Shown here piece after piece: positions 19,694 to 61,077 of a stretch of 64,000 nt of DNA (position 1 is the stretch's first letter; each line of letters starts with the position of its first letter). The DNA comes from a virus. The notes under the pieces are model-generated. The model searched no databases, was not told where the DNA came from, and saw only the letters and a list, made by a program, of their open reading frames with translations. The DNA is taken from the IMG/VR virus record IMGVR_UViG_3300035695_000001, positions 1 to 64,000 of that record; one strand, written 5' to 3'. The position numbers and the translations under genes were made by a program.

Positions 19694-20961
19694 TCTCCAG
19701 CGCGGAAGCCCCCGCCTCGGCTCTTGCCAGGCGGTGGAGGAAGCGCTGCTCCGTCCTTCGGGTTGATGTTCGTGTCTTAGACGTGGTACGCCTAGGATCG
19801 TGAAGTTGGTCGCCACCGTCAAGTTGCTCGTGGACGCGGAGCAGAAGGCTCGGCTCCTGGCGACGATGGCCAGGGTGAACGAGGCGTGCGACTGGCTCGC
19901 CGAGCGGGCATTCAGCCTCCAGACCGCCGACAAGTTGCGCCTCCAGAAACTCTACTACCGCGAACTGCGCGACCGCTTCGGCCTCTCCGCCCAGCATGTG
20001 GTCCGCCTGATCTCCAAGGTCTGCGAGGTCTACAAGCGCGACAAGAGCAAGCGCTGCCGCTTCAAGCCGCACGGTGCGATTCCGCTGGACCAGCGGCTCT
20101 ACAGCTTCAAAAACGGGCTCGACCGCGTCAGCATCCTCGCGATCGACGGACGCATCATCGTTCCATGCGCGATCGGGGCCTACCATGCTGGGCGACTCGA
20201 CGGCGCCCGCGGGCAGGCCGACTTGGTCTACCGCAAAGGGGCGTTGTACCTCTTCGTCAGCGTCGAGGTCCCCGATGGCAGCCCCATCGACCTGGAGGGC
20301 TGGCTTGGGGTCGACCTCGGCATCCGTAACTTGGCCGTCGACTCGGATGGCGAGGCACACTCGGGCGAGGAGACGCTCCGCGTTCGATCGCGCATCGCGA
20401 AGCTCCGTGCTGGCCTGCAACGAGCCGGGACGAAGAGCGCGAAGCGGCACATCCGTAAGCTCCGAAGGAGGGAGCAGGGCTTCCACGCCCACAAGAACCA
20501 CGTCATCAGCAAGCACATCGTCCGCAAGGCCAAAGACACCGGGCGCGGGATCGCAGTGGAAGACCTCCACGGCATCCGCGACCGGGTAACGGTTAGGAAG
20601 GCCCAGCGGAGCGCGCTGCACGGCTGGTCGTTCGCGCAGTTGCGCGGGTTCCTCACGTACAAGGCCAGGCTCTCGGGCGTGGCGCTTGTGGCTGTGGACC
20701 CTCGGAACACATCGCGGACGTGCCCGTCTTGCGGCTGCGTCGACAAGCGGAACCGGCCAAGCCAGGCGGGCTTCCGCTGCATCGGTTGCGGTTTTGAGGG
20801 GAACGCCGACCACGTCGGCGCCAGAAACATCGCGACCAGGGCCGTCGTAGTCCGGCCCATCGTAGGGGCTGTCAGGTTGGGTATCGTGCATCTAGCGAGT
20901 CCTCGACCATGCCACCTGCAAAGCCCCAACCTCGCCGCTGCGGCAGGTGGGGGTTGATTAC
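19690..20961 (+). mobile_element. IS200/IS605-family (IS1341-like, tnpB-only) insertion sequence
   Basis: Related subterminal hairpins at both ends. Left: TCAC target (19686-19689) and GAAG guide at +16..+19. Right: AAAG guide before the hairpin and TTAC terminus at 20958-20961. No tnpA. Confidence 0.88.
19800..20957 (+). CDS. tnpB: RNA-guided endonuclease TnpB
   Basis: RuvC D/E/D intact (GVDLG, AVEDL, NADH); zinc finger CPSC...CIGC; TSRTC motif. Confidence 0.95.
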   Translation: MKLVATVKLLVDAEQKARLLATMARVNEACDWLAERAFSLQTADKLRLQKLYYRELRDRFGLSAQHVVRLISKVCEVYKRDKSKRCRFKPHGAIPLDQRLYSFKNGLDRVSILAIDGRIIVPCAIGAYHAGRLDGARGQADLVYRKGALYLFVSVEVPDGSPIDLEGWLGVDLGIRNLAVDSDGEAHSGEETLRVRSRIAKLRAGLQRAGTKSAKRHIRKLRRREQGFHAHKNHVISKHIVRKAKDTGRGIAVEDLHGIRDRVTVRKAQRSALHGWSFAQLRGFLTYKARLSGVALVAVDPRNTSRTCPSCGCVDKRNRPSQAGFRCIGCGFEGNADHVGARNIATRAVVVRPIVGAVRLGIVHLASPRPCHLQSPNLAAAAGGG

Positions 20962-40760: not shown

Positions 40761-41069
40761 TCAGCGCGGAGCCTCGCAGGCATCGACGGCCTGGCACGAC
40801 GTCGCCGAGGCCCGGCAGTCCATGTTGAGGCGGAGCATCCCCGAAGCGATGGCGTTGGTGAGCACGACCTCGCACGGCACCCCGGCGGGGGTCGGCTTGC
40901 CACCCTCGCAGCCGAGGATCCGGTAGTGCTCACAGACCGCGGCGACGCTGGCCTGGGGAGCGTCGCGCAACGGGGCGGGAGCCGTCGTCGACTGGTTGGA
41001 CGATGAGGACCGGCCTGACGAGCACGCCTCGATGACCAGCGCAGAGGCGAGGAGGATGGCGGGCTTCAC
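40761..41069 (-). CDS. small lipoprotein (o-spanin-like candidate)
   Basis: Hydrophobic leader and IEAC lipobox; Cys-rich. Confidence 0.6.
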   Translation of the reverse strand: MKPAILLASALVIEACSSGRSSSSNQSTTAPAPLRDAPQASVAAVCEHYRILGCEGGKPTPAGVPCEVVLTNAIASGMLRLNMDCRASATSCQAVDACEAPR

Positions 41070-41932
41070 GACGCGGTCTCCTGGGCGGGCGCCCGGTTCA
41101 CGAGCCATAGGTCACCCGAGCGCATCCAGCCCTCGCTCATCCAGAACCTGCCCCCGTCGGCGAAGCCCTGGCCCCAGGAGTTCCTGACCCGGTACCAGCG
41201 CTGTGCGGTCCCGTTCACGGTGACGACCCGCCGGCCGACCACCACCATGGCGTGCCCGCCAGAAGCCTTCGCGGGGAGGTCCACCGGCTGGCTCGGGTCG
41301 AACTGGCCGGCGCAGAAGGCGTCGTCCACGTCGACGCCGATGCAGACGGGGTGCCCGGCCGCCAGCGCCGCGTCCACGTTGTCGCCGAGGTCCCCGGCCA
41401 CGTCGTCGATCACCTGGGCTTCCAGCTCGCCGTCCGTCGAGCGCCGGTCGTACGCCTCGCGCACCACCTCGGCGGGAGGCTCGCTCCGGAACTGGTCGGT
41501 GGGCAGCCCGTCCCCGTCCGGTGCGCCGCTCTTGGACTGGTAGGGCCACGCCGCCTCGGGCGGGATCCCGACCTTGGCCGCCATCGTGAAGATGGACCGG
41601 AACGTGGTCCCCGCGTCTCGGTCGAGCGTGCCGTCCACCGCCCTGCCACAGCGGTACAGCCACTGGCGGCTCCCCATCACGGCGTTGGGGTTGCCCCGCA
41701 GCGCCTCGATGATGTCGGCCTCGGCGGCAGAATGGCCCCCGCAGGATCCCTCCGCCTCCTGGTTCAGGATCGGCACGCTGGCGTCGGTGGCGATGAGGAT
41801 GTCGCCGGGGAGGTTGACGCCTGGACTGGCGGTGAAGGAGCGGAAGCCGCGCCCCGCTGCCCGCAGCGGGTCCCTGAAGAACCCGAGCAGGATCGGCTTG
41901 CCGAGGTGGCCATGGACGAGCGGGGGGCTCAC
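41066..41932 (-). CDS. C1 (papain-family) cysteine peptidase
   Basis: NQ...GSCGGH, GGHAMVVVG and RNSWG...GRFWM motifs. Confidence 0.9.
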   Translation of the reverse strand: MSPPLVHGHLGKPILLGFFRDPLRAAGRGFRSFTASPGVNLPGDILIATDASVPILNQEAEGSCGGHSAAEADIIEALRGNPNAVMGSRQWLYRCGRAVDGTLDRDAGTTFRSIFTMAAKVGIPPEAAWPYQSKSGAPDGDGLPTDQFRSEPPAEVVREAYDRRSTDGELEAQVIDDVAGDLGDNVDAALAAGHPVCIGVDVDDAFCAGQFDPSQPVDLPAKASGGHAMVVVGRRVVTVNGTAQRWYRVRNSWGQGFADGGRFWMSEGWMRSGDLWLVNRAPAQETAS

Positions 41933-42569: not shown

Positions 42570-42601
42570 AGGAGGAGAGGCCGGGCCAGTAGAGCCCGGC
42601 C
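42570..42601 (-). terminator. GC hairpin after the 844-aa gene
   Basis: GGCCGGGC/GCCCGGCC stem followed by a pyrimidine tract (no U run). Confidence 0.35.
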
Positions 42602-42610
42602 GGGGGCTGG

Positions 42611-45145
42611 TCAGGCGGGCTTGTAGAGGTCGTTGAGGAGGGCCATGTAGGCTTGGTAGCGCTTGTCCGCCATCTGCCTCGATGCCACGGTTGGCCACTC
42701 GCCTCCGTAGTCGACGCTGGCCTTCTCCAGCGGCTTGAGGAGCGCCCACGCTTCGGCCAGTGCCTTGCCTCGGGCCTCCCCCATCTCTTGCGGAGCGTCC
42801 GGATTGGCGGCCAGGAACGCCGGCATGCGCCTGGCGATGTCCCGGCCAGGCATTCCGCTGGCCTTGTACTCGGCCTGCCATGTCGGGTCGTTCTGGATCC
42901 CACCGACAGGTTTGAACTCCCACACGACTTCGTGCCCCTTGGGCGCTGGCAGCGATGCCGTCTCCCGGTCGTCCGTCGCCTCGATGACTCGATCGCCTTC
43001 GGTCCACGCGACGACGGCGCTCACCATGGGCTTCTCGGTCTCCCACGTCACTGATGCCACGATGCCGCCGGTCGGATCCCCGTGCTTGGCGTGCCACCGG
43101 GAGACCCTCGCAGACGTCTTGCCCAGGATGGGGTGGACGAAGTCGCCCAACTTGCCGTCCATGATCTCGGCCTTGAACGACTCCCAGTAATCGGGGAACC
43201 AGCGGGCGAACCCCTTGGGCGGGATCGCGACGTGCGAGTTGAGGAAGGCGCACTCCACAGTCCAGGAAGCGCACTTCCCTGGCTGCACGGTCGTGTCGAC
43301 GATGGTGCCGAGGAGCGGCTTCCCGCGCCAGGACATCGCAGGCACCGCCTCACGGACCTGGCGCTCCTGCTCCAGGCGGGCGCCGGTGACGGCGGCATCC
43401 TCCTCGTCCGAGAACCGGGCCGGGTCCCCCTCAAACATGGCAGAGAGGCCGGTGATCTTGCCGTCCTCCGAGACGACCAGAGGTCCCGTCACGAGGTGGC
43501 ATTTCCCCTCGCACGAGGCACCGTTGCTGAGTTTCACGATGCGGTAGTCGAGCATCTCGGCGTTGAGGAACGCCTGGTCCAACGAAAAGCCGTGGCCGTC
43601 GATGGGGGCGATGTCGACGTGTTCCTTGACCTCGATCCTGCGCACGGTCGCGCCTCCTGGCGTGGTCCTGGCGAGGCAGGTGGACAGGTGAACGTTGTTC
43701 ACGCGGAGACCACCACCACCTTGGGCGGGCGAGAACAGTTCCAGGAAGAAGCGCTCGCTGAGGTTGGCGCTCGGAAACTTGGGTTCATCGGCCTGCGCCT
43801 TGGCAGCGGTTGCGAGGATGGTGTCCTCGGCCGGCGCAGAGACCGGGACGGCGATGGGCTCTGGTCGCTGGGCATGGCCCTCGACGAGTTGTGGCACGTA
43901 GGCCCGCACCTGCGCGCTGAACTCCCAAGGCATGGTGATGTTCCCGCCAGGCTTGACCTCGACGTCGATCCACGGTCGGCGGTCCGGCGCCCTGAAGAGC
44001 CTGAAGGTCACCGTGGTGTCGGTCGGATTGTGCCAGGTGCTCAGCCCACTCCGATAGAGGAGCGGGCTGGAAGGCGGCTCGGACCGGCATGGTACGACGG
44101 GCGCCGGGACGGTCTCGAAGGTCCTCGGGCACAGATGCGTGAGCGCGAGCGGGCCGCCGACGATGTCTCGGAGGATGACGTGCTGGCTCGGGTCGCGGAC
44201 CCGCATGGCGAACGTGACGTGGATGGTCACGCGGAACTGGCCGGAGACGACCCACGATTCCGGGTCCCTGTCGCCGATGCGCTGCGGCACGCCGTCGAAG
44301 ACTGCCACGCTGCACACGATCGAGCCGGACGGCGCGCTGACGCTGTACGGCTGGACGATCTCGACGCCAGCCGGGTTGATGATGGCGACGACGTCGTCGG
44401 GGCAGGACGTAGACGTAGCGCACTGGTAGCCACCGGAACGGTCTTCGACGTCGGTTCCATCGGCGAATGCCGACGCGGGCAACCCCTTGCCGATCTGGTA
44501 GCGCTCCGCGGTCCCCTTGCTGGCGACGATGAGGTAAGGGCGGCCCACGGTCCTGGCGACCGACGTCTGGTCCTTTGCAGCCTCGACGAGACCCGCCGTG
44601 AGCGCACGCCGCTGGCCGCCGTTCCCCATCGCGGTCCCGGCCCATTCACGGTAGGTGCTCCGACTGATCCCGGCGTAGGCACCGCCAGGCTCGATGGCAC
44701 CGCCGAACAGGCCGACCGCCGTCACGTTGCCTTTGTCGTCGACCCCGTACCCAGTGAGCACCTGGGCTTCGATCTTCTCGGCCATCGCCCTGAGCGCCGC
44801 CGTGACAGTTTCGCGGAAGATGGCCTCCATGACGGCGGGCGCATAGCCAGAAGCCTTTGCCTTCAGCGCGTCGGGAACAGAGACCGTAATGGGCTCGCTG
44901 CGAACCTGCGCGAAGCAGAGGGCCGCAGGGACGGTGGGGTTGAAGGCGTACGCCGAGGACCAGGACATGGTCGGGAAGACGACGTCCCAGTGGCAGTTCT
45001 TCCCAGACTCTTGGACGATGGGAAGCGCGGCGAGCAGGCTGTCGCTTCCGAGCAGGTGGCCGCTCAGGCTCCACTTGAAGGAGTCTGACAGGGCCGAGGC
45101 GAGCGCGATGGCGTCGTCGGTCGTAATCTCGTTCGTGGTATCCAT
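42611..45145 (-). CDS. multi-module fusion of degenerate virion-protein domains (capsid-like, tube-like, Mu gp43-like)
   Basis: aa 630-675 is 28/46 identical to aa 62-107 of the protein at 60121-61077; aa 1-330 resembles an HK97-fold major capsid protein. Confidence 0.75.
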   Translation of the reverse strand: MDTTNEITTDDAIALASALSDSFKWSLSGHLLGSDSLLAALPIVQESGKNCHWDVVFPTMSWSSAYAFNPTVPAALCFAQVRSEPITVSVPDALKAKASGYAPAVMEAIFRETVTAALRAMAEKIEAQVLTGYGVDDKGNVTAVGLFGGAIEPGGAYAGISRSTYREWAGTAMGNGGQRRALTAGLVEAAKDQTSVARTVGRPYLIVASKGTAERYQIGKGLPASAFADGTDVEDRSGGYQCATSTSCPDDVVAIINPAGVEIVQPYSVSAPSGSIVCSVAVFDGVPQRIGDRDPESWVVSGQFRVTIHVTFAMRVRDPSQHVILRDIVGGPLALTHLCPRTFETVPAPVVPCRSEPPSSPLLYRSGLSTWHNPTDTTVTFRLFRAPDRRPWIDVEVKPGGNITMPWEFSAQVRAYVPQLVEGHAQRPEPIAVPVSAPAEDTILATAAKAQADEPKFPSANLSERFFLELFSPAQGGGGLRVNNVHLSTCLARTTPGGATVRRIEVKEHVDIAPIDGHGFSLDQAFLNAEMLDYRIVKLSNGASCEGKCHLVTGPLVVSEDGKITGLSAMFEGDPARFSDEEDAAVTGARLEQERQVREAVPAMSWRGKPLLGTIVDTTVQPGKCASWTVECAFLNSHVAIPPKGFARWFPDYWESFKAEIMDGKLGDFVHPILGKTSARVSRWHAKHGDPTGGIVASVTWETEKPMVSAVVAWTEGDRVIEATDDRETASLPAPKGHEVVWEFKPVGGIQNDPTWQAEYKASGMPGRDIARRMPAFLAANPDAPQEMGEARGKALAEAWALLKPLEKASVDYGGEWPTVASRQMADKRYQAYMALLNDLYKPA

Positions 45146-45244: not shown

Positions 45245-45277
45245 TGTCTAGCAGTGCCGCCCGGGTCGTGCTAGACA
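45245..45277. promoter_or_regulatory. Operator pair TGTCTAGCA-N15-TGCTAGACA between divergent genes
   Basis: Exact motif pair. Confidence 0.75.
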
Positions 45278-45324: not shown

Positions 45325-45708
45325 ATGGCAGAAGACGACCCCATCGTGGACCCGTACGACGCGCCGCCGGACAGCGAGCCGGTGACGGAAGAAGACCTCG
45401 CGCGCATTGCTGGAACTAGGTTGGCGATCGAGCGCGGCGAGACCATCTCGACCGAGGAATTGCAACGTCGACTGGATGCTGAGTTCCACGTCCGCTTGAC
45501 GGTCAAGTTCGACCGAGAGGAAGACGGGCGCTGGATCGGCGACGTGCCTGAGTTCCATGGTTGCCACGTCTACGGTGCCAACAGAAACGAGGCGCGCGTC
45601 AAGGTCAAGGCGCTGGCCCTCCGCGTCCTCGCCGACCGCATGGAGCACGGGGAGGCCGCGGCCCCAGAAACGATCACGTTCACGACCGAAGGGAACGACG
45701 AGGAATGA
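45325..45708 (+). CDS. orphan HicB-like antitoxin with extra N-terminal antitoxin-like segment
   Basis: DREEDGRWIGDVPEFHGCHVYG..RNEA..KVKALALRVLADRMEHGE; no hicA nearby. Confidence 0.8.
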   Translation: MAEDDPIVDPYDAPPDSEPVTEEDLARIAGTRLAIERGETISTEELQRRLDAEFHVRLTVKFDREEDGRWIGDVPEFHGCHVYGANRNEARVKVKALALRVLADRMEHGEAAAPETITFTTEGNDEE

Positions 45709-54750: not shown

Positions 54751-55389
54751 TCAAATTCCAGTCAGCCCGACAGTGCCAATCCCGGCTACGAAACCACTAC
54801 TAGACACGGTAATGATGGCTACGTCCCATGCCGGCAAGACGAGTTTGAGTCTGAGACATAGCCTCCTCTTGAGGTCATCCAGAGCCGATGAGACAAGTCC
54901 AGTAGCGTTAATTTTTACGCCCAAGAGGTTCGACGTTCCGCTCCATCCGTACCCCGCGGGCCCTGGGTTCAAGCCGGGGGCGTACACGATCGGCGATGCT
55001 GCCGCCGTGAGCCCAACGAAGGCCGAGCCCGCAATGGCCTGGCACGCATCCTCGATCGCCGCCAGCGCGTTGGACGAGAGCCCAGCGAAGCACGCTGCCA
55101 CGGCCCCGCGCCGGTCGTTGTCGCTCGTCCCTGGCAGGACCGAGAGCGAGCACGCCTCCTCGAAGACGGGGAGGCTCTCCATCATCTTTGGGGGGCACAG
55201 GAGCCCCTTGAGCCGCTCGTCGCATGCCCAGACGTTGGACAGCATGATGGCCTCGGCGTGGCACATCGCGACATGAAGCGGGTCTGTCGGGTCGAGCAGC
55301 GAAGCATCGAGCAGCGCCTGCTTCTCCTGCTGGACGACGCTGGGGCCGCCGCCCAAGCGCATCGCGAGGGGTGTCCCTAGACCAGCCAT
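54751..55389 (-). CDS. baseplate wedge protein (Mu gp48-like)
   Basis: Position after J-like genes; E....L...RR and LPAW motifs. Confidence 0.6.
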   Translation of the reverse strand: MAGLGTPLAMRLGGGPSVVQQEKQALLDASLLDPTDPLHVAMCHAEAIMLSNVWACDERLKGLLCPPKMMESLPVFEEACSLSVLPGTSDNDRRGAVAACFAGLSSNALAAIEDACQAIAGSAFVGLTAAASPIVYAPGLNPGPAGYGWSGTSNLLGVKINATGLVSSALDDLKRRLCLRLKLVLPAWDVAIITVSSSGFVAGIGTVGLTGI

Positions 55390-60120: not shown

Positions 60121-61077
60121 TCAGGCCGCCGTGTAGTAGGTGATGGCCTTGTACTTCGGCACCTGGACGAATGGGATCAACTGCGGGTTGAGCCCGAGGA
60201 TGTCGTCGAAGGTGTTGCCCACCGAGTTTGCAAACGCGGCCAGGGTGGTAGGTGTGTCGATGGTCCTGCTCGCGGTTGGCCGGTTGGCCAGGCCGATCTG
60301 CGTCTGGGCGCCCTGGATGTAGGAGAAGAACGCCCAGACGGCCGACAGCGCCTGGGACGCCTGACAGGCGTCGAGCGACGTCAGGATCTCAGCCATCGCG
60401 ATGACGTCACCGATGAGCGCCAGGATCTGCGCCAGCGTCGTGAATGACAGCGAGAAGACGCCGCCCGAGATGGCCGCCCAGATCGACGAGAGAGAGATGC
60501 TCGCGCCCGTCGGCATCCCGTACATGCCCCACGTTTGCTGGGGCAGCCTCCCAGGCCCAGGGAAGACACCGAACTCGGCGCACGCTGCATCGGCAGCGCT
60601 CGCCAATGTGGCTGGGTTGCCGGCGAGCACGTCGCCGAAGAAGGCGATGGTGCTCGGATCCTCGTTGGTCAACTCCCAGGTGATGGTCACCGTGATGCCG
60701 CTCAGGCTCTCGGTGGTGATGGTCGTCGACCCGTCCGCCACGACGGCGCGAACCGACCCAAGGAGCGGGTGGACGAGATCCCCGGGGTTGCCGTCGAGCA
60801 CCTGGGTCTTGAAGACCTCCCAGTATTCTGGGAACCAGCGCGCGTACCCCAGCGGTGGCGCTTGCGTCTGCGTGTTCAGGAAGCGGCACTCGACCTTGAA
60901 CGGCTTGACGTCCATCCCGGTCCAGTCGTGGCCGGCGATGTCGACATAGGGGTACTCACGCTTCGCCTGACGGTGCGTCCATTCGAGCGGGAAGGCGTGG
61001 TACGGCGGGAGCAAGAGCCCGCGCCAAGACGGCGCGGAGAGCCCTTGGATGATGGTGCTGTCGCCGGTCGCCATCAC
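60121..61077 (-). CDS. DNA-circularisation N-terminal domain protein (Mu gp43-like tube initiator) with C-terminal LysM-like region
   Basis: SWRG, REYPYVD...D.TG and GDLVHPLLG motifs; ILGLNP near the C-terminus; follows the tape measure gene. Confidence 0.85.
   Translation of the reverse strand: MMATGDSTIIQGLSAPSWRGLLLPPYHAFPLEWTHRQAKREYPYVDIAGHDWTGMDVKPFKVECRFLNTQTQAPPLGYARWFPEYWEVFKTQVLDGNPGDLVHPLLGSVRAVVADGSTTITTESLSGITVTITWELTNEDPSTIAFFGDVLAGNPATLASAADAACAEFGVFPGPGRLPQQTWGMYGMPTGASISLSSIWAAISGGVFSLSFTTLAQILALIGDVIAMAEILTSLDACQASQALSAVWAFFSYIQGAQTQIGLANRPTASRTIDTPTTLAAFANSVGNTFDDILGLNPQLIPFVQVPKYKAITYYTAA

Follow-up and report, generated by a model that had tools for sequence, protein, structure and literature searches.

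What might a phage gain from a single gene that strings together copies of its own virion proteins? This question is raised by the gene at positions 42611-45145, on the minus strand, of the IMG/VR virus record IMGVR_UViG_3300035695_000001, which lies within the window analyzed here, that is, the first 64 kb (64,000 nucleotides) of a complete soil-phage genome of 162,811 bp with a 127-nt terminal overlap. The gene encodes a protein of 844 amino acids in a stop-free open reading frame (ORF), and its G+C content at the third codon positions (GC3) is 0.86, like that of the other genes of the genome. When searched against its own genome, the ORF resolves into diverged copies of four proteins of the virion operon, followed by an unmatched tail of 140 amino acids. 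The four modules do not overlap, each has a separate, intact parent gene in the same genome, and they stand in the order of the operon, across a span of 15 kb, while the fusion gene itself lies 15-30 kb away from the parents. An earlier, sequence-only reading had described an intact ORF with its modules in normal gene order, far from the structural operon, all of which is borne out. Its view of the protein as a non-polymerizing virion mimic is also strongly supported by the anatomy of the modules, the signs of selection, and the recurrence of loop-less copies elsewhere.

In this anatomy, three separate deletions each strike a conserved inter-subunit loop, namely the E-loop tip of the capsid, the beta2-beta3 loop of the tail tube, and a hairpin of the gp43-like protein. 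Module 1 (amino acids 1-330; 44156-45145, minus strand) is a copy of an HK97-fold major capsid protein of the Mic1/A-1(L)-like family, in which amino acids 10-217 (extending to 328) match the true major capsid gene of the phage (genome 74308-75372) at 30-33% identity (E 6e-27), with an identity of only about 30% to any intact capsid. The parent family itself matches the capsids of the cyanophages Mic1 (6J3Q, E 3e-40) and A-1(L) (7F38). The model of module 1 presents an HK97 fold with a spine helix and P- and A-domains (pLDDT 82, pTM 0.82), and the Foldseek search based on this model returned 7F38 (E 1e-13), 6J3Q (E 7e-11), and also HK97, although the alignment used for the modeling consists mostly of intact capsids, so the model shows compatibility with the fold rather than proof of it. 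The length of the spine helix is kept exactly, and the core between residues 137 and 192 retains 24 of its 34 conserved residues (the intact mean is 25.7). The E-loop (about amino acids 53-70; 44936-44989, minus strand) is short, as had been suspected, with a tip of 12 amino acids versus 20-24 in 68 intact relatives, and none of the 10 conserved residues of the tip is kept. The slot for the shell protein in the head operon, after the scaffold, is occupied by 74308-75372 and not by the fusion gene, which disposes of the earlier concern that the fusion might itself be the virion capsid.

Module 2 (amino acids 367-421; 43883-44047, minus strand) copies the small domain encoded next after the capsid gene, as had been proposed by eye. 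Amino acids 367-441 match this parent (genome 73597-74301) at 34-37% identity (E 6e-8), but the coiled-coil-like flanks of the parent are missing, and the leads of a structure search in the Atlas were all below 0.8. The resemblance of the third module (amino acids 460-578; 43412-43768, minus strand) to a contractile tail tube, which had also been noted, is confirmed by a match to the tube gene of the phage (genome 64992-65393) at 42-48% identity (E 2e-29). This module lacks 13 amino acids of the beta2-beta3 stacking loop, with the deletion junction at about 43655-43672. Six of the eight family-invariant residues of the loop are deleted, whereas 18 of the 22 invariant residues outside it are kept, and the loop is present in all seven full-length members of the tube family. 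The parent gene sits between those of the sheath and the tape measure, after the sheath. A low-confidence model of its product (pLDDT 59) has tail tubes as its top matches (Z 9.8, root-mean-square deviation 3.5, 110 aligned residues), and contains a disordered loop between strands, at residues 32-56. In the same genome, the tail sheath (genome 65425-67665) and an upstream gene of 694 amino acids (70862-72946) have a common domain of 95 amino acids, with 64% identity, a pairing that holds in two related phages, G001 and G002, as well.

The fourth module (amino acids 604-704; 43034-43336, minus strand) is a copy of the N-domain of a Mu-gp43-like (DNA_circ_N) protein, presumably with a tube-like fold, like that of Mu gp43. 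Its intact parent is the only one within the window (60121-61074, minus strand; PF07157, phrog_184), and follows the tape measure gene. Over amino acids 630-675, a recount reproduced exactly the 28 identities in 46 ungapped positions claimed in the sequence-only reading (BLASTP E 4e-21), and the spacing from SWRG to VEC is indeed 21 residues in the module and 41 in the parent. Mu gp43 and all eight intact rows have a conserved 20-residue REYPY hairpin, in place of which the module has a short turn, and it also lacks the C-terminal 180 amino acids. PF07157 is matched by seven of the nine aligned rows of the family, the parent aligns weakly to Mu gp43 (PDB 9KI1, E 0.017), and a comparison of the hub and tube family profiles was not significant. 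The hairpin may be the counterpart of the stacking loop of the tube. The remaining C-terminal region (module 5, amino acids 705-844; 42614-43033, minus strand) has a base use of the coding type, and a weak likeness of shape only (TM 0.48) to part of a viral hypothetical protein of 786 residues, whose cluster in the ESM Atlas has 67 members. No sequence match to this region or to the linkers was found in three genomes and the fetched loci, nor, for module 5, in the protein libraries. The linkers in question are the Pro-rich linker 1 (amino acids 331-366; 44048-44155; GC3 0.83), the Pro/Ala linker 2 (422-459; 43769-43882), and linker 3 (579-603; 43337-43411), all on the minus strand.

The coding character of the fusion is consistent with long maintenance as a protein. 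Where copy and parent have identical residues, their agreement at four-fold sites is 0.28-0.45, against 0.38 expected at saturation, while the agreement at the second codon positions is 0.50-0.71. The GC3 is 0.84-0.92 in each module and 0.76-0.87 in the linkers. The copies keep 30-48% of the residues of their parents, and retention climbs with the conservation of the column, from 0.12 to 0.64. In neutral simulations run to 55% or 40% identity, with frameshifts ignored, none of the 300 sequences in either set stayed free of stops. As the silent sites are saturated and the frame is intact, selection at the protein level has kept the gene, and the modules are old, although this says nothing on the date of the fusion. 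The NG86 pN/pS values are saturated, and were not taken as dN/dS. The modules group only distantly with the genes of the phage itself, on long branches (1.3-2.0 versus a median of 0.7), and match the proteins of this phage and of its sister phage about equally.

An origin of the fusion through an artefact of assembly, which had been raised as an objection, is unlikely, given that the gene is assembled along its whole length. A Logan unitig (23.6 kb, depth 11) spans the gene and does not differ from it, in a run that is possibly the source sample, while identical contigs from another study tile 43013-43711 and a third study covers 43336-43505, which includes linker 3. Only the possible source run has contigs that cover junctions 1 and 2, and the gaps in the shallow runs are uninformative. 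The best likeness between copy and parent at the DNA level (74% over 137 nt) is too low for a misjoin driven by repeats. The fusion as a whole is a singleton, with no relatives found by full-length search of libraries of 5.8 billion and 1.84 billion proteins, and no homologues in searches of viral contigs or cultured phages. A search with the capsid profile of proteins of 651-2000 amino acids likewise found no other fusion, which is weak evidence, and no RNA data sets with the gene were listed. The homologues with variable sets of modules that had been predicted were thus not encountered.

The fusion is unique, but its building principle, the loop-less copy, recurs. The same genome contains a third capsid gene, which stands alone (285 amino acids; genome 89775-90632, minus strand; L002:9776-10633) three genes upstream of the terminase, and has an E-loop tip of five amino acids and two more trimmed loops. 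The structural operon is common to the fusion phage and two related phages, of which the complete one (G001, 155.6 kb) lacks the fusion and has an intact tube in its operon. Near the terminase of G001, a tube copy of 172 amino acids (G001:34017-34670; L008:10001-10519) has lost the same loop with other breakpoints, and carries an added tail of 45 amino acids. In a phage of 140.9 kb, an intact capsid of 368 amino acids follows a scaffold-like gene, while a capsid copy of 351 amino acids with almost no E-loop lies near the terminase. This copy clusters with the intact capsid of its own phage (97% SH-aLRT), a sign that it arose independently, although a common origin of all the short capsids is not rejected in the formal test (p-AU 0.083), and the pairing of the fusion with the 285-residue capsid in the tree carries a long-branch warning. 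There are three further short-loop capsids, one of which is clearly outside a head operon. The copies P0030 and P0032 are on 2-kb contigs, and for the phage that carries P0094 no intact capsid gene was reached. Four other short-E-loop matches (P0010, P0048, P0092, and P0107) were dropped as probable chimeras or fragments. Two of the short-E-loop copies, P0075 (L041:10001-11056) and P0030 (L043:925-1950), have a common added N-terminal CxCG-x4-DCDYH, a possible metal-binding tag. Near the terminase of G001, a gene on the minus strand (G001:38701-39327) contains a stretch of 41 amino acids like residues 56-96 of a baseplate-J-like profile (E 5e-7), possibly a copy of a virion fragment.

The sequences upstream of the fusion suggest how it may be expressed. 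A TGCTAGACA motif (45245-45253, minus strand), about 100 nt upstream of the gene, is a probable extended -10 element, and a second copy (45269-45277, plus strand), back to back with the first, faces a divergent gene. The divergent gene, which has the same motif pair, is an orphan HicB-like gene (phrog_497, E 0.001; window 45325-45708, plus strand). The 8-mer TGCTAGAC occurs in 49 copies in the genome, against 2.8 expected, at sites from 6903 to 139931, nearly all of them intergenic and aimed at a start, with no copies between 49474 and 81618, the region that contains the structural operon. The copies come in back-to-back or tandem pairs, the latter with a spacing of 23 nt, like that of -35 and -10 elements, and in four cases an ATG lies 6 nt downstream, in a leaderless geometry, where about 0.4 would be expected by chance. 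One copy is aimed at the fusion and one at the 285-residue capsid copy, which is apparently leaderless behind it, and accessory genes have the motif too. Neither G001 nor G002 has it, and a generic sigma-70 scan found no promoter at the site upstream of the fusion. This 8-mer is probably an extended -10 promoter for the host polymerase, and early, non-structural expression of the fusion may be envisaged on this basis. The separate upstream motif of the supposed "operator-controlled region" thus stands, but the region is more likely two back-to-back extended -10 promoters than an operator, while the LexA-like gene of the phage keeps an operator role among the options. A hairpin with 8 bp of G+C lies directly after the stop codon (42579-42601, minus strand), and represents a possible 3' boundary, though it does not score as a classic terminator. 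A papain-family peptidase gene (window 41066-41932, minus strand) is found two genes downstream of the fusion.

The findings fit either of the two functions put forward in the sequence-only reading, a sensor decoy or an assembly poison, and do not tell them apart. The fusion is tentatively interpreted as a multivalent decoy that would engage host sensors of virion proteins. The protein would probably be made early, from the promoter of the host-polymerase type, and its domains resembling capsid, tube, and hub would tie up the host immune sensors for these folds but leave them inactive, so that the genuine virion proteins, made later, would escape notice. Without their loops, the copies would stay out of the particles of the phage itself, and would also be missing the part that trips the sensor, while the chain could titrate sensors without a fixed geometry and, if expressed early, would be there first. 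[quoted passage not shown] The fuller claim, that this is a natural single-chain decoy, built of virion proteins stripped of their polymerizing and sensor-activating loops, directed against more than one sensor, and the extreme of a widespread, undescribed class, is slightly more doubtful.

A number of points weigh against this interpretation. No sensor was identified for the fusion, and the host is only hinted at by the presence of the capsid family in 14 of the 383 genomes of a family that includes a Polyangiaceae metagenome-assembled genome, where the capsids have full E-loops wherever the loop aligned. The monomeric tube activates DSR2, so a non-polymerizing copy could act as a trigger, and binding without activation has been shown for DSR2 alone (PMC10981675). 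The parent of module 2 is not known as a trigger, and the conservation of the fusion itself is not measurable in a singleton. The loss of the loops is also predicted equally by a second reading, in which the protein poisons the assembly of competing, related phages, the modules accepting one neighbor but failing to recruit the next, and so capping shells, tubes, and tail initiators, with the bulky remainder of the chain adding a steric block.

This poisoning of assembly is somewhat unlikely, but is a close rival of the decoy, and the strongest one. In P74-26, tubes hardly assemble in vitro once the tube loop is deleted, while the protein stays folded (PMC10034513), the E-loops contact the spine helix of the neighbor in HK97-type shells (PMC8569155), and Tab, Tai, and Ccm, which are compared below, are cases in which assembly is indeed targeted. 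Weak support comes from a complex predicted for module 3 and two tubes of the phage itself, with a score of 0.52 versus 0.23 for the best of three controls, at least 65% of the contacts in agreement between runs, and a partner pLDDT of at least 74. Of 80 solved complexes, 58 reach the mark set for this score, as do 2 of 110 mismatches, and at 0.60 or below it is reached by only seven of the 80 but by both mismatches; the pass may merely mirror a likeness to the solved tube rings, and unless the complex is likely beforehand, a pass of this kind tends to be wrong. The LexA-like and ParB-like genes encoded by the phage leave a plasmid-type prophage state conceivable, but no tyrosine or serine integrase was found in the genome, which makes the prophage setting usual for assembly blockers less likely, and counts for the decoy. 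The low identity of the capsid module to any intact capsid is a further difficulty, and an early-made poison would risk self-harm, with proteins of the phage itself and of its sister phage among the best matches of the modules and no anti-poison gene identified.

A role in the morphogenesis of the phage itself is distinctly unlikely. Capsid and tube paralogues serve as minor virion parts elsewhere, as in the case of T4 gp24 and the tube initiators, and the fusion might hold subunits back, in a chaperone-like role or to set the timing, or might be a polyprotein whose cleavage yields minor parts of the virion, as the Pro/Ala-rich linkers and the papain-like peptidase downstream could suggest. 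The complete relative G001, however, has the structural operon but no fusion, the gene is remote from its parents and under a different control motif, and modules of the head and of the tail base cannot share one particle. It is improbable, in turn, that the gene is a drifting relic, derived from the collapse by deletion of a duplicated or captured structural operon, or from the recent chance fusion of older functional single copies. The order of the modules is that predicted by a collapse, and the long branches and singleton status fit such an origin, but the 844 stop-free codons, the coding-type GC3 of modules and linkers alike, the saturated silent sites, the retention that climbs with conservation, and the targeted loop losses repeated in other phages all argue against it. 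The least probable reading is that monomeric copies set off abortive defense, or carry module 5 to particles or sensors, given that DSR2 is activated by the monomeric tube, that module 5 is unexplained and of coding-type base use, and that the G001 tube copy also has an added tail, but in the single tested case the loss of this loop removes activation, and a self-expressed trigger would hurt the lytic cycle of the phage itself.

Other features of the genome can be recorded here. A TnpB-family gene lies above the NCBIfam cut-off (window 19800-20957, plus strand), and a gene of the tail operon (window 54751-55362, minus strand) has a G001 orthologue with weak ADP-ribosyltransferase matches in Pfam. 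At genome 76528-78398, the two genes that flank an insert (77080-77715) match a single ORF of G002 (279-1223), which fits a split fusion gene.

Many bacterial sensors detect virion folds that are hard for phages to change. If the decoy interpretation is correct, disarmed folds would represent a new kind of counter-defense, whereas a poison would represent a new route of phage-phage warfare, and a variant of Ccm-like interference. For each module, an intact parent from the same genome can serve as a matched control, and the result of the loop deletion in the DSR2 system offers a ready assay. A simple rule, that of a paralogue without its stacking loop, could be used to mine genomes for anti-defense or exclusion genes.

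The architecture of the fusion has been verified and appears to be new, with no description of natural loop-less or fused virion-protein copies found in the literature searched, the coverage of which was incomplete. The parent families of modules 1, 3, and 4 are, respectively, the Mic1 (6J3Q)/A-1(L) (7F38) capsids, the contractile tail tubes, and Mu gp43 (9KI1, PF07157), but the copies are fused, located outside the operon, and deprived of conserved loops, and because these loops are missing, the fusion is not a member of the working capsids, tubes, or hubs. In eukaryotes, Ty1 p22 and Fv1 are truncated capsid restriction factors that do not build particles, but interfere with them, although they have an unrelated fold, belong to an unrelated system, and consist of a single module.

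The closest parallel to module 3 is the SPR tube-delta-Loop1 (PMC10981675), in which the removal of the beta2-beta3 loop left the sensor, DSR2, bound with little activation, as a decoy would require, but this is a laboratory construct, whereas the deletion here is natural, and fused to copies of three other virion proteins. DSAD1, the natural inhibitor (PMC10981675), acts on DSR2 allosterically as a small protein in its own right, and resembles the fusion only in the possible role of blocking a sensor. As far as the available text of the sources extends, Tab (PMC10884400) and Tai (PMC11364771) are, like the fusion, accessory phage genes under separate control, which could block the assembly of competitors, but they are not described there as copies of virion proteins, and target tape measure or tail-tip proteins; Tab also has an anti-Tab partner in this text, while no such partner was identified for the fusion. 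A PADLOC scan (2023 library) gave no match. Ccm of SaPIbov5 (PMC8569155) is, like module 1, a diverged capsid homologue (24% identity) found outside a head operon, and acts on capsid assembly. Ccm is encoded by a satellite, however, keeps its E-loop, and is built into pentamers, whereas the fusion is encoded by a complete phage of 162.8 kb with a capsid of its own, and its capsid copy, with a shortened E-loop, forms part of a chain of modules.

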